From the IMG/VR virus record IMGVR_UViG_2563366959_000003: DNA of 20,003 nucleotides. One strand, given 5' to 3'. The DNA comes from a virus. Lineage: Duplodnaviria; Heunggongvirae; Uroviricota; Caudoviricetes. Each line of letters starts with the position of its first letter. Position 1 is the first letter of the stretch. The position numbers are program-made. Shown here piece by piece: positions 6,001-18,000 of the stretch.

Positions 6001-9000
6001 AAGACATTAACCCATCTGGCTGGCGGACGCTGGGCTGAGTTCCATACGGCAAGGCGGGGATTTATCCGGCTGGGAAAACGACTGGGCTTTGAGCGAATGC
6101 CGGATGATGAGGATGGCTTCATGGTGTTCAGGATAGCGGTCTGACTGCTACAGTTTTCATCATTGTGTTTAAACCAACATTGTAATTCACATTCTGACCC
6201 TGCTCCGGCAGGGTTTTTTGTTATCCAGGGGGCCATTATGGGTGGAAGTAAAGGCGGTGGTGATACCAAAGTAAAACCAACAGCAGCGCAAATAGCACAG
6301 GAAGAAGTGGCCTGGAAAGGGTGGCAGGATTACAAAAATATCCTCCGCCCGGCTGAAGATAACTTCATGGAAAAGGTCGATGACCTGAACAGTGAGCAGC
6401 AGTACGACAATATTGCTGGCACCACAAATCTGGGGTATCAGAAACAGTTTGGCGAAGCACGGAAGGAGCTTGCGGGTAATCTTGCTCAGTCCGGCGTTGA
6501 CCCATCCAGTGGTCGTTTTAATGCGGTAATGAATGCGAACCAGAGTGACCAGGTAACCGGGCAGATTGACACAACCACACGGGGGCAGGTATCGCAGGCA
6601 GATAAGTATGTTGCCGGGCTACAGGATGTTGCTGCTCTCGGTTCTGGTCAGAAGGCGGATGCGTTACAGAGTTTTAACTCTCTGGCAGACAGCAGTCTGG
6701 CAAAAGCTAAATCGGATGCACAGGCGGCGTTTACGAAACAGCAGGGGCGAGCCTCTCTTGTTGGCGCTGGTCTGGGTGCGGCAGGTGCATATGCGATGCA
6801 TAAGGCTGGCGGTAGCGGAGGAAGTGGCGGTGCTAAAACACCTGGCACCGGCGCTAATGCCATTCAGCATCAGGCTCAGAACTGGAGACTGTAATTATGG
6901 AGTATGGCAAATACGAAACTCTCGCAAGGGCTGGTTATTCAGGAGCAGACCGCCCACAGGGTGACTGGCAGACGTCAGCAGCGCTGACACGCCAACAATA
7001 CGACGACTGGCGAACCAGATATTTGCCCCGCGTGGCAAGGCTGGCTGACCTTGGGGAGAACAACAGTCTGATGAATGCACAGCTTGCACGGGTGGGAGGC
7101 CTTGCCACTTCCAGTCTCCGTACAGCGCAGATGGCGCAGGATAACCAGATGGCGAGATACGGGGTAAACCGCCCGGATAATCCCGACAGTAATACGCTGG
7201 GGTTACGTAATGCCCTGGCAATTGCTGGCGCGAAAAATGGTATCCGTGAAGCCGAACAGGATCGCCAGATGAATATTCTGACGGGGGCTTCTGCACCGGC
7301 AAGACAGAAACTGAGTGTTGGCGGCCAACTGGTGGCAGCGTAAGGGGGCAATATGGGATACGGTTTACTGGATATTGCAAATCAGTCGCGGCGTGAGGCA
7401 TTACAGGGAATAAGTGACGCAGACAGACGACGTGAAGAAATTGAGGCTGCGAACAAACAGATGGCGGCGCAACAGAAAGCGCAGAACAAGCAGAATATCG
7501 GTACGGGCATTGGTACGGGGGCGGCTATTGGCGCATCCGTTGGTGGTCCTGTTGGTGCTGTTGCTGGAGCAGTAATTGGCGGCATTGCTGGTTCTTTGTT
7601 TTAAGGAGTGGTGAATGAGCGGATTTGCACAGGGGTTACTTGCCGGATTCAGCACCGTTGACCAGGCAATGACCCGTCGTAAGGAGCTTGGTCTGCGTGA
7701 AGCACAGCTTGCCCGGCAACAGAAAAATAACGAGCGCGATTTTGAGTTTGCGCAGTCTCAGTTTGAACATAATAAAAACGTTGATCAGCGGAACTTTGAT
7801 TACAGAGCCAAAGTTGACGACCGTAATTATGCACTGAAGGAAAGGGAGTTTAACGCTAACCAGAATTACCGGAATGCGTCACTGGGTATGGAGCAGCAGC
7901 GACTCCAGTTGCAGAAATACAACCAGCGACGGCTTGAGTATAACGATATGATTGCCCATAGCCAGCCACTAATGGAAGCGCTTGGAAAAGCAATTGAGGC
8001 TGGCGATCAGGAGGCTGCAACGCGTCTGTTCGGGCAGCTGCCAAAGGGACATCCATTAATTCTTATGTCAAACGAAGGCTATGCAGCGAAAGCGGGTCAG
8101 GCCGTGATCAACCTGCAAAAAATCTTTGGTGATAAGCCGGACATGGCGATCGATTCGCTGAATACCCCGGAAAATCTCGATGTGCTTTCCGGCGTGTTTG
8201 CCCCGGAACTACAACAGCGTATTGGCATGCCTGATTCAACCGGGGACAAAACGATAAAAGAGGCCAGGATTGGCAGTATCGTACCAGCGCAGCAGGAAGG
8301 GTACGTACTTATTGGCCTTGATCTCACATACAGCGATGGCTCCACCGCGCATAAACCTGTAACAGAATACGGCAGTGCGCACCCTGATGATCAAACCGTG
8401 CTGGCGATACCCGTTGATAAGGCTATCGCTCAGGTCAGGGATCGCAGCAAATTTGCAGAGATATCGAAAAATTATGGTTATTTTATGCCGAAGCAGCAGG
8501 GACTTTCTCTGAAAGAGCTTCAGAAGGGGGCCAGCAACGTAGCGGCGGACGCGATCAAGAATGGCGGTAATGCTCAGGCTGCGGTGGATGAATATTATGC
8601 TGCGACTGGTTCACAACCGCATCAACAGAAAATTCAGCAACAAAAACTTCAGCAACAGGTTATCAACTGGGCGGGAGATGATCCTGATAAGCTGTCATTT
8701 GCCAGAAATGTAGCGGCCCGTCAGCCTGAAATGCTGGAACCTCAGAATCAGAAATTGCTGGAGAACGGGTATGCGAATTTTCTCCGTATTCAAAAGGCCA
8801 GGGGGGAACAGGCCAGAGATGAAAGTGCTTCATCTGCATCTCAGTTTATCCGTGGACTGAAACAGAATTACGCCCAGTAATTCACGATATTCCATTAATA
8901 CCATTTCCTGATGCCCGGCCATTGTGCCGGGTTTTTTTATGGAGTCTGTATGGCCTATTCAGAGGAACAGCGTCCTGAGGCGCAACTCGGTAACCAGAAT

Positions 9001-15000: not shown

Positions 15001-18000
15001 TATGACCGTCTGGCAGGGATTATTGACGATATGCTGGCCCGTCGCCGTGAGCTTATCCGTGAGGCCGGACTTGAAGAGAACGGTGTGGTGGATGCCTGGC
15101 AGAACGCCTACCGTTACTACGTTCCCCTGAAAGGTCAGGATGTTGACGGTGTGGTGTCACTGCCCCGTACAGGTAAGGGCTTCACCATCGGCGGACGTGA
15201 AAGCAGGCAGGCCATGGGGCGTGCATCCCGGGCACAGTCTCCGTCCACTCAGGCGATACAGGACCTGAGCGAATCGCTGATCCGCCATCGCAAAAACGAA
15301 GTGGGTAACGCCTTCCTGAAACTGGTGCAGGATAATCCCGACAAGGATTACTGGCAGGTATTCACCGATGACAGACCGGATACCATGCGGACGATTGCAG
15401 AGCGCAAGGACCAGGAAACTGGTGAAACCATTCGCGAAGTTGTCGAACGCCCTGTACCGATGGCAATGATGGCAGACCGGTACTTCACCACCAAAAAGAA
15501 CGGCAAAACGTACTACATCAAACTCCATGATCCGCGCCTGATGCGTGCGATGAAGAGTATGGGACCGGAAACCAGCAATGCCTTTGTTCGTACGCTGGGG
15601 AAAGTTAACCGCTTCCTGGCAACGGTGAACACGTCGTATAACCCGGAATTTCTGGTCAGTAACTTCATCCGTGACGTGCAGACGGCGGTGATGAACCTGA
15701 AGGCGGAGCAGGGAAGGAGCGACGGTAAACTGAAAGGGCTGGATAACTTATCCGCCCTGGCTGTGGTGAAAGACAGCCGTTCTGCCATGTCAGCCGTATA
15801 CGCCAGTCTGCGTGGTATAACCCTCACGGGAAAAGGTGCACAGTGGCAGAAGGTGTGGAAAGAGTTTGTTGAGGGCGGAGGGAAAACCGGCTGGTTTAAC
15901 ATGGGTGACCTTGAAGGCCAGCAGAAGGAAATGGATCGCCTTGTCTCACTGGCGAAGGGGGGATGGAAAGGCCAGAGTATCGGTGCATGGAATTCGTTCC
16001 TTAACCTTGTCGAGGATGCCAACGGTGCGGTTGAAAACGCTCTGCGTCTTTCTGCCTATAAGCACGCCCGTGATGCCGGTTTGTCACGCCAGCAGGCGGC
16101 GTCTCTTGCCAAAAACATGACGGTGAACTTTAACCGTCGTGGTGAGCAGGGAGCGCTGATGAACTCGCTGTACATGTTCGCCAACGCCAGCATTCAGGGG
16201 ACCGCAAACCTGGTGAGAACGCTCGGACATCTTAATGGCGACGGGCCGTTACTGGAGCGCCTTCGCTGGAAGAATCTCAATGTACCGCAGAAAATCGCGC
16301 TTGCAGCTGTGGGAGCGGGTTATCTGCTTGGCTCGCTTAACCGCAGTGTTGCGGGGGAGGATGATGACGGGGTTAACTGGTATGACAAGGTGCCGTCTCA
16401 TGTGAAAGAGCGTAACCTCGTCATTATGAAATCGGTGTTCGGGGGCAAGGCCGGAGAGTACTGGAGTATTCCTCTGCCTTACGGGTACAACGTTTTCTTC
16501 CTGCTCGGGCATACTGCTGAAGGTGTGGCGGCGGGTGACCTGACGGCGTCCCGTGCTGCCGGTAATGTTGTTGGTGGTGTGCTTGGTGCATTCAGCCCGA
16601 TTGGCAGTGAGACGTCGGAAACACTGTCCGGGGCATTGCTGAAAAATGCAGCGCCGACCATTCTGCGTCCGTTTGCGAACCTTGCCATGAATGAAAACTT
16701 CATGGGGGCGCAGATTTACCAGGAGAACATGCCGTTTGGTACACCAAAACCTGACAGCCAGCTGGGAAGACGTTCAACGCCAGAAGCGTACAAGGCGTTT
16801 GCATCCTGGCTGAATGCGTTCTCTGGTGGCAGCCAGTACCGTCCCGGCGCGGTGGATATCACACCGGAATCGCTGAAATACTGGGTGGACTATATCTCCG
16901 GAGGGACAGGGCGCTTCATTTCCAAAACCACGGATGCGGCGGTGAAATCGCTGAATGGTATTGATATACCGGAGCAGCAGGTGCCCTTCCTGGGGAAAAT
17001 TTCAGGTGAGGTGATGCCGTATGCAGACCAGCAGAAGATGTACGACCGGATGACAGAGATTGCGCAGTATCACGCAGAGCTGAAGAGTCTGACCGGTGCA
17101 GAAAGAACGGCGTTCATTGACGAGAACAACGGAAAATTGTCGATGAACGGGCTTATGCAGGATACCCGGAAGAGACTGAAGGATTTGCGTAAACAGCGTG
17201 ATGCCATTTACGCCGACAGTACTCTCAGTCTGGCGCAACAGTCGGCGATGGTGAAATCGGTAGAGCGGGATATGAAAATTGCCGTGGATCGGTTTAACCG
17301 CGAGTACAACAAAAAAGTGGGAGTGGATTAACAGAAATGGCCCCGTACGGAAGTGCGGGGCTGATTAAGAAATAAACACTCATTGACCTGTAATAACCGG
17401 AGCTATTAACATATAGTCAGAAGAGCATTTCATGTGATACAGAGAGCCGATTTATGTTTAATGAAGAAAAAGTTGCGCAAATGGCAGCGTATTTGCTGAA
17501 AAAGCATGGCGGATCTATGCGTTTCATTAAGCTGAAGCAGCAACGGTAATGGCGAATAGCATTTATGAGCAAAATAATCTTGATATGTTATTAGGCGATC
17601 TGATGTAACCGGGATGATGTTCACCCCTTATCGCCGGGGAACAATACCGGCAATCAGAATTGCGGATGGAACTATTCAGGCCCACGATGATATCGATGAG
17701 GAGTTTTTTCAGCCAGTATTGGATGGCTTTCTTATATCCAAATATACGCCATTTGACATCCTCCACGCCCTGAAGGACGGGGTTTTACAGCGCACCGGAT
17801 AAGATTCGGTGTTTTGTTGAAAAATACTGTGATAACAAACAGAAAACCCGTCAGTAAGACGGGCTTAGCAAGCTGGGACGGTTACTTTAATAATTTCAGT
17901 GCCTTTACATCCACTTCAACACTGCTCAGGTCTTTATCAATTTCACCCTCAATTCTTACTTTGTCTTTCGGAGAAACATTCTGACCGGCCCATATGCTGT

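Follow-up and report, generated by a model that had tools for sequence, protein, structure and literature searches.

The 20,003-nucleotide stretch of DNA analysed here (the window), taken from the Caudoviricetes record IMGVR_UViG_2563366959_000003, is the right end of a short-tailed Shiga toxin (Stx) prophage of the Sepvirinae and contains a giant open reading frame (ORF) of 2,793 amino acids (aa). The product of this ORF is probably an ejection protein that is packaged in the virion and built like the virion RNA polymerase (vRNAP, gp50) of phage N4, minus the polymerase. A preliminary description of this DNA had named an ejection protein as one alternative for the giant ORF, and this is now the better-supported reading. 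The giant ORF is not a new object: the gene and its membership in the polyvalent-protein class had been described before, and a preprint had already put forward the ejection idea. New here are the homology to the N-terminal domain of N4 vRNAP, the dissection of the protein into chassis and cargo, the extent of its C-terminal module (C-module), and the exclusion of cysteine throughout its family and from the adjoining operon. Our analysis makes a long-standing question more testable and reveals no new kind of system.

That the gene is essential and its product present in virions is established in the literature. After deletion of the same gene from prophage Sp5 (ORF80), the prophage still excises and packages DNA, yet forms no plaques or lysogens on Escherichia coli K-12, and the defect was complemented in trans (Mondal et al. 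2016, PMC5155283). In phage phi24B, the corresponding protein gp47 is abundant in purified virions by mass spectrometry and absent from all cryo-electron microscopy density, and was proposed to be an encapsidated ejection protein (doi 10.64898/2026.04.10.717836). The homologous giant of Burkholderia phage JC1 is virion-associated, with 51 peptides. Because the gene is essential on K-12, we suggest that its core role is delivery rather than anti-restriction.

The giant ORF is divided into the following parts, where all four Pfam domain matches lie far above the Pfam cut-offs.

8950..17331 (+ strand): giant ORF, 2,793 aa, Sp5 ORF80/ECs1242, phi24B gp47; from the ORF listing, phage and genome comparison, and the literature.
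9460..10359 (+ strand): N-terminal module (N-module), residues 171-470, Gly/Ala-rich and helical, with a Gly zipper at its end (402-425); by profile comparison homologous to N4 vRNAP residues 230-446.
10360..12099 (+ strand): low-complexity linker rich in Pro, Gln and Glu, residues 471-1050; Stx-phage alleles vary at its 3' end (about residues 800-1050).
12100..12549 (+ strand): LPD5, residues 1051-1200 (Pfam E 6.5e-45).
12550..13269 (+ strand): zincin 1, CLCA_X-like, with HEWFH at residues 1284-1288 (nt 12799-12813) and LPD1 at residues 1361-1440 (Pfam LPD1 1e-23).
13270..14049 (+ strand): zincin 2, residues 1441-1700, with RHEIIHH at residues 1550-1556 (nt 13597-13617) and the conserved Glu1607.
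14197..14466 (+ strand): MuF_C/PBECR, residues 1750-1839, predicted RelE/BECR-type RNase-toxin fold (Pfam 1e-17).
14476..17328 (+ strand): C-module, residues 1843-2793, mostly helical, a conserved block of about 950 aa.
16375-16992 (+ strand): Pfam LPD38, residues 2476-2681, only part of the C-module (Pfam 2e-48).

The composite architecture sketched in the preliminary description was largely borne out. Composition analysis confirms the Gly/Ala-rich N-terminal region (Gly+Ala 25-33% in residues 101-500), the Pro/Gln/Glu-rich stretch (Pro+Gln+Glu 18-33% in residues 401-900) and Gly-zipper segments near both ends, with Gly-zipper or moderately hydrophobic segments at residues 181-199, 402-425, 2443-2467 and 2504-2551. 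Its HEWFH and HEIIHH motifs are present at residues 1284-1288 and 1551-1556, and the zincin family it had in mind is represented by two HExxH domains with conserved Glu residues. The profile search it suggested for LPD and PBECR families recovered LPD5, LPD1, LPD38 and MuF_C/PBECR. The protein thus belongs, as supposed, to the polyvalent class, which was defined together with the LPD domains by Iyer et al. 2017 (PMC5512222); here, LPD5, LPD1, MuF_C and LPD38 are joined in one polypeptide among late/virion genes.

In zincin 1, H1284, E1285 and H1288 are kept in 39 of 46 homologues, and Glu1375 and Glu1382 in LPD1 are about 90% conserved. As the zincin residues are conserved across HEWFH and LPD1, we read LPD5, HExxH and LPD1 as one zincin unit, which is also widespread on its own across many bacterial phyla. 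The NCBIfam model CLCA_X (NF041907) covers residues 1182-1437 with 148.6 bits (E 2e-43) against a curated cut-off of 260 bits, so that the domain is homologous to CLCA_X and not a member of that family. Zincin 2 has an invariant E1552 and H1555, with H1551 kept in 46 and E1607 in 48 of 49 sequences. Fold searches matched it weakly to MATCAP and anthrax lethal factor, and it fits the description of MPTase (HExxH on one helix, Glu on the next); the Pfam model MPTase-PolyVal had no match in the giant protein. The MuF_C domain keeps its predicted catalytic residues, His in KH and Ser in ASVYG, and its modelled fold is that of a RelE/BECR-type RNase toxin, not of a metallopeptidase. For structure prediction of residues 1040-1850 we used a trimmed alignment (A5), which replaced an alignment (A4) containing misaligned Salmonella sequences. 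The C-module of some 950 residues is one conserved fold with no solved relative. The linker (residues 471-1050) matched no family, Pfam searches with tiles of 300-600 residues at E-values up to 10 added nothing but weak Gly-zipper and M76 motif matches, and sequence searches of the PDB with the whole protein and the zincin 2 profile returned nothing meaningful. The giant gene contains no tandem repeats of note.

The N-module provides the link to N4. A profile built from the N-modules of 63 relatives matched N4 gp50 at residues 230-446 with 38.4 bits (hmmsearch, E 1e-13), compared with 2.2 bits for the best of 500 composition-preserving shuffles. With hhalign, the N-module aligned to N4 with a probability of 95.6% (E 1.2e-8), and in a reciprocal phmmer search the N4 N-terminal domain as query matched several giants at corresponding positions. 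The PHROG family of virion RNA polymerases also gave a weak match in the N-module region (E 0.0036); Pfam has no model for the N-terminal part of N4 gp50. Judged by these profile comparisons, the N-module of the giant protein is homologous to the N-terminal domain of N4 vRNAP. Iyer et al. (PMC5512222) had found nothing outside N4-like phages in searches from the N4 N-terminal region. Term searches of the phi24B preprint and of the N4 structure paper (PMC13434306) did not find a link between the Stx giant and N4 either, and in the preprint, phage N4 is cited only for capsid symmetry (doi 10.64898/2026.04.10.717836).

The N4 structure paper (PMC13434306) describes a protein whose parts can be laid beside those of the giant protein. 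Its N-terminal domain, which inserts into nanodiscs, has predicted membrane-spanning helices at residues 224-278, and a low-complexity linker of about 100 residues comes after it. This domain was proposed to build the inner-membrane complex, and the rest of gp50 to pass, like beads on a string, through a channel of about 35 Å. At its C-terminal end, the N4 protein has a domain made up of an HExxH subdomain followed by a helical subdomain of about 110 kDa without structural relatives. N4 gp50 and the giant protein share the same order of parts: an N-terminal domain, a low-complexity linker, cargo, an HExxH zincin and a large helical C-terminal part. In N4 the cargo includes an RNA polymerase domain, which the giant ORF lacks; four vRNAP families in Pfam match N4 gp50 and none match the giant ORF.

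To place the N-module in its family, we relied on an exhaustive search of representative sequences with residues 1-470, which returned 101 representatives; a word-indexed search with residues 1-500 gave only E. coli and Salmonella fragments. Fragments aside, residues 171-470 always aligned at about residues 100-450 of proteins of 2,000-4,665 aa, and the N-module heads at least 63 giant phage proteins. Among these 63 relatives, which all have the N-module by selection, zincin 2 is the domain most often kept (48 of 63). The LPD5-zincin 1-LPD1 unit is kept in about 19 and MuF_C in about 17, while the C-module is clearly recognisable in eight, with a weak match to its middle part only in about 20 more. 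A Pfam scan of 14 relatives found LPD38 (8), LPD39 (6) and methyltransferases (5), as well as Sno-type and SNF2/ResIII helicases, ddrB-ParB and InPase, which shows that DarB-type methylase-helicase cargo rides the same frame in other phages.

The C-module has a distribution of its own. It occurs at 33-58% identity in prophages of marine gammaproteobacteria, where it follows varied domains (ART, methyltransferases, InPase, LPD3), and tblastn detected it in Vibrio phages (41% identity), in Ralstonia (26%) and Bcep22-like Burkholderia phages (27%), where the proteins are annotated as 'DarB-like', and, for about half of the module, in Bacillus phages (22%). The LPD38 giant of phage PTXU04, which is critical for infection, is a structural match to the C-module. 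In an Amphritea metagenome-assembled genome (L003, 10001-12946), the C-module stands alone as a 981-aa ORF beside an integrase, an excisionase and early genes; this locus is probably what a deletion left of a related prophage, and we do not take it as evidence for modular expression. C-modules of different Stx-phage alleles are at least 96% identical apart from the first residues, and divergence is concentrated in two patches. The first spans residues 800-1200 (window 11350-12550; 57-69% in Stx2 phage 86), covering the end of the linker and LPD5, and the second spans residues 1700-1900 (window 14050-14650; 67-78% in Lyz12581Vzw), covering MuF_C and the first residues of the C-module. This pattern fits recombination or diversifying selection on the cargo, and the best reading of the family is a conserved chassis around an exchangeable middle cargo.

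The giant protein has no cysteine in 2,793 residues (P about 4e-14 at a background frequency of 1.1%), an absence that the preliminary description did not mention. Its 63 relatives have six cysteines in 180,342 residues, 58 of them having none at all, and N4 gp50 shares the trait, with no cysteine in the 4,294 residues of the N4 ejection proteins gp50, gp51 and gp52 together. P1 DarB has nine. From these sequences, we infer that cysteine exclusion may reflect selection against disulfides during unfolded passage through the tail and the oxidising periplasm. Being easy to score, such near-total exclusion could help to flag ejected proteins in uncharacterised podophages.

Taken as an ejection protein, the giant protein would be packed inside the T=9 head. 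Upon binding to BamA the needle would be released, and the giant protein, for the most part unfolded, would pass out through the tail channel like beads on a string, a passage that the long linker and modular build would permit. The N-module would act as a membrane-engaging pilot domain that, with the Gly-zipper segments, inserts into the envelope and, together with the small cysteine-free proteins encoded upstream, lengthens the conduit for the DNA. Zincin 2, kept across the family, might cleave the giant polypeptide itself or host targets, while zincin 1 and the RNase-like domain could be effectors acting in the cell.

Several observations weigh against this explanation. Neither zincin 2 nor the C-module gave a significant match to the C-terminal domain of N4 by profile or hhalign, and only the N-module is demonstrably related to N4. 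The giant protein also has no strongly hydrophobic transmembrane segment, as none of its 19-residue windows reaches the mean Kyte-Doolittle hydropathy of 1.4 that is typical of a transmembrane helix, and its location in the head is suggested by missing density only. The main discordant fact is that ORF80-deleted particles, despite their normal-looking, DNA-filled heads, were not bound by an anti-tail-fibre antibody (PMC5155283), which points to a role in the formation or stability of the tail and keeps a structural role alive.

From this antibody result and a COG1483 hit, Mondal et al. proposed an energy-requiring role in tail assembly (PMC5155283). A role of the giant protein in the assembly or structure of the tail, possibly as an AAA+ factor that uses energy, agrees with the position of its gene among tail genes, but we consider it unlikely. 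The tail density of phi24B is fully assigned to other proteins, with gp47 absent there though abundant by mass spectrometry. The loss of labelling could itself be secondary, for example if the portal-tail joint becomes unstable without the internal protein. As the preliminary description had noted, the protein has no Walker A motif ([AG]xxxxGK[ST]), and no AAA+ or other ATPase family was found in Pfam or NCBIfam; the label 'AAA+ ATPase' derived from COG1483 is therefore unsupported and should be corrected. A tape measure, which the preliminary description had likewise discounted, was rejected since the phage is short-tailed (Sepvirinae) and the protein matched no tape measure family.

Still less likely is that the main job of the giant protein is anti-defence, as for P1 DarB, with an accessory effector injected to shield the incoming DNA and needed only on hosts that have certain defence systems. 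Membership in the polyvalent class is consistent with this, as are the concentration of allelic divergence in the cargo region and the methylase, SNF2 or Sno-type helicase, ParB, ART and RelA/SpoT domains of N- and C-module relatives that are annotated as 'DarB-like'. However, on E. coli K-12 the phage cannot do without the gene under standard conditions, and the protein has neither a methylase or helicase nor a match in PADLOC. The preliminary description had judged its domain content to differ from that of DarB, and we indeed detected no homology: the best BLASTP E-value to P1 DarB was 0.5, and profiles of the N-module, zincin 2, two parts of the C-module (C1 and C2) and LPD38 all missed DarB. 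A homologue of DarB was thus rejected, and for this member of the family the label 'DarB-like antirestriction' is misleading and should be changed. The annotation of MuF_C should likewise name a predicted RNase-toxin fold in place of a metallopeptidase. Anti-defence may still be a function of the cargo domains, yet this would leave essentiality unexplained.

A secreted or contact-dependent polymorphic toxin benefiting the lysogen is highly improbable, since, although RelE/BECR-like RNase and zincin domains occur in many polymorphic toxins, the protein is present in virions and needed for infectivity, has no signal peptide or RHS/YD repeats in the ORF and Pfam analysis (as the preliminary description had stated) and no T5SS, T6SS or T7SS trafficking domain, and its gene belongs to the late operon, where it follows the nozzle, needle and other virion genes and has no immunity-like gene after it. 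Membership in the T7 gp14-16 or P22 gp7/16/20 families was rejected because no sequence or fold similarity to solved members was found.

The frame of the giant ORF is uninterrupted up to its stop at 17329-17331. An intact, full-length copy with at least 90% identity occurs in 186 phage records, which all belong to Shiga-toxin-converting phages or their close relatives, and 411 of 5,426 complete E. coli genomes hold at least 80% of the window. These records confirm the 8.4 kb frame and exclude the assembly artefact that the preliminary description had considered. The gene had been described before: over its full nucleotide length it is 99.6% identical to orf71 of RefSeq VT2-Sakai, which Mondal et al. 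number as ORF80/ECs1242 of prophage Sp5. Records of Sp5/VT2-Sakai and 933W have contained it for decades, its deletion and complementation date from 2016, and the 2026 preprint detected its product in phi24B virions. The best matches among E. coli genomes start at window position 250, which places positions 1-249 across a mosaic joint upstream of the nozzle gene.

Sp5 (VT2-Sakai) ORF80 and phi24B gp47 are the same gene as the giant ORF, with the same neighbours and 2,793 aa, and differ only in annotated start (2,793 or 2,806 aa here, 2,811 aa for phi24B gp47). A mechanical ORF list begins the frame at ATG 8911, giving 2,806 aa, as in RefSeq NC_000902. The ATG at 8950, which has GGAG five bases 5' and gives 2,793 aa, is the start used by PGAP and by Mondal et al. 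(PMC5155283).

Along the window, ORF70 (nozzle) comes first and is followed by ORF71, which is the central needle (Phage_Tail_Tip), then by a moron island of low GC, five small ORFs, ORF79, the giant ORF and divergent early-left genes. The features outside the giant ORF are listed here.

604-2307 (+ strand): ORF70, nozzle; homologous to the 'virion-associated protein' present in six copies in the portal-tail complex of Ralstonia phage GP4 (PDB 8jov_A, E 2.5e-54).
3587-5313 (+ strand): low-GC island with an outer-membrane protein, a membrane-associated protein and lom; 41-45% GC vs 50-58% around it.
6238..8880 (+ strand): four cysteine-free ORFs directly 5' of the giant ORF, of 218, 148, 83 (Gly zipper) and 421 aa (ORF79).
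7353-7604 (+ strand): the 83-aa protein, annotated 'bacteriocin', with a YMGG-type Gly zipper and a hydrophobic C-terminal half.
8913..8939 (+ strand): terminator-like GC-rich hairpin and T-run (seven T's) between ORF79 and the giant ORF, overlapping the upstream ATG 8911.
18346-18670 (- strand): toxin ORF of the hok/gef type, together with a full-length antisense RNA, sok (Rfam RF01794, 113 bits), downstream of the giant ORF.

The late morphogenesis operon ends with the giant ORF, so that the accessory position assigned to it in the preliminary description does not hold. The gene is also essential for plaques and lysogeny (PMC5155283). The order of nozzle, needle or tail fibre, small ORFs, ORF79-like gene and giant is common to Vibrio phages, and in Bcep22-like phages the giant likewise closes the morphogenesis module. 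The hairpin and T-run at 8913-8939 look like the terminator of the preceding gene.

Because cysteine exclusion is common to the giant and the block at 6238-8880, we marked the four ORFs of this block as candidate co-ejected proteins. The next ORF upstream (5743-6144) encodes three cysteines, and Vibrio phage D459 shows the same cysteine pattern gene for gene (L008, 5895-9428). Three observations fit a co-ejected role. First, ORF79 is essential (Mondal et al., PMC5155283); it has no counterpart among solved structures. Second, deletion of ORF76, which may correspond to 6238-6894 going by gene order only, strongly lowered infectivity (Mondal et al., PMC5155283). Third, a 'homolog of a bacteriocin' was found in phi24B virions and set aside as a contaminant (doi 10.64898/2026.04.10.717836). 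The 83-aa 'bacteriocin' protein matches this homologue and may be a genuine membrane-active virion protein.

Some further annotations of the region were observed. ORF70 is labelled 'hypothetical' in the RefSeq records seen, and its PHROGs family carries the label 'internal virion protein'. The low-GC island, which separates the needle gene from the small virion ORFs, resembles a moron block. A second ORF of the Hok/Gef family lies at about 5546-5686 (+ strand), between lom and the small virion ORFs, according to the RefSeq annotation of a near-identical locus, but without a sok match in Rfam.

Short-tailed Stx phages carry Shiga toxin genes from one E. coli to another, and the giant protein takes up 14% of their genome and is essential. 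The link to N4 carries over methods and concepts, for example nanodisc insertion, membrane localisation after infection and the beads-on-a-string passage, that could serve the question of capsid organisation raised by the phi24B authors.

Compared with known systems, the ejection proteins gp14/15/16 of T7 and gp7/16/20 of P22 have the same proposed role, being stored in the head, first to leave it and bridging the envelope of the host of a short-tailed phage. These ejectosomes consist of several mid-sized proteins, whereas the giant is a single polypeptide without a lytic transglycosylase. P1 DarB, taken as the archetype of the polyvalent class, is likewise a giant protein carried in the phage head. 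Unlike the giant protein, it combines an N6-methylase with an SNF2/helicase and has no LPD domain. P1 DarB is dispensable for growth on non-restricting hosts. Closer are the 'DarB-like' giants of Bcep22-like (Lessievirus), Ralstonia and Vibrio phages, whose C-module of about 950 aa is homologous to that of the giant protein, with 26-41% identity over 83-97% of its length. In the Bcep22-like phages the giant is also the last morphogenesis gene and is also virion-associated, and the portal, capsid and head-closure proteins resemble those of 933W. The cargo differs: lytic transglycosylase, methylase and helicase in the 'DarB-like' giants, and LPD5-zincin-LPD1 with an RNase-like domain here.

As for N4, neither gp50 nor the giant is visible in virion reconstructions, and neither contains a single cysteine. 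Homology is not detectable between their zincins and C-terminal parts, and the small upstream proteins have no similarity to gp51 or gp52. We tentatively propose, while regarding it as somewhat less probable than the ejection role itself, that the Stx giant, the 'DarB-like' giants of Bcep22-, Ralstonia- and Vibrio-type podophages and N4 vRNAP are versions of one ancient delivery chassis. Its parts would be a membrane pilot domain, a linker, a processing zincin and a helical C-module, into which almost any cargo could be slotted, for example RNA polymerase, methylase-helicase, proteases or RNases, and cysteine exclusion would mark the chassis and its partners. If this is true, the block at 6238-8880 and the giant ORF form the complete ejectosome operon of Shiga-toxin phages.

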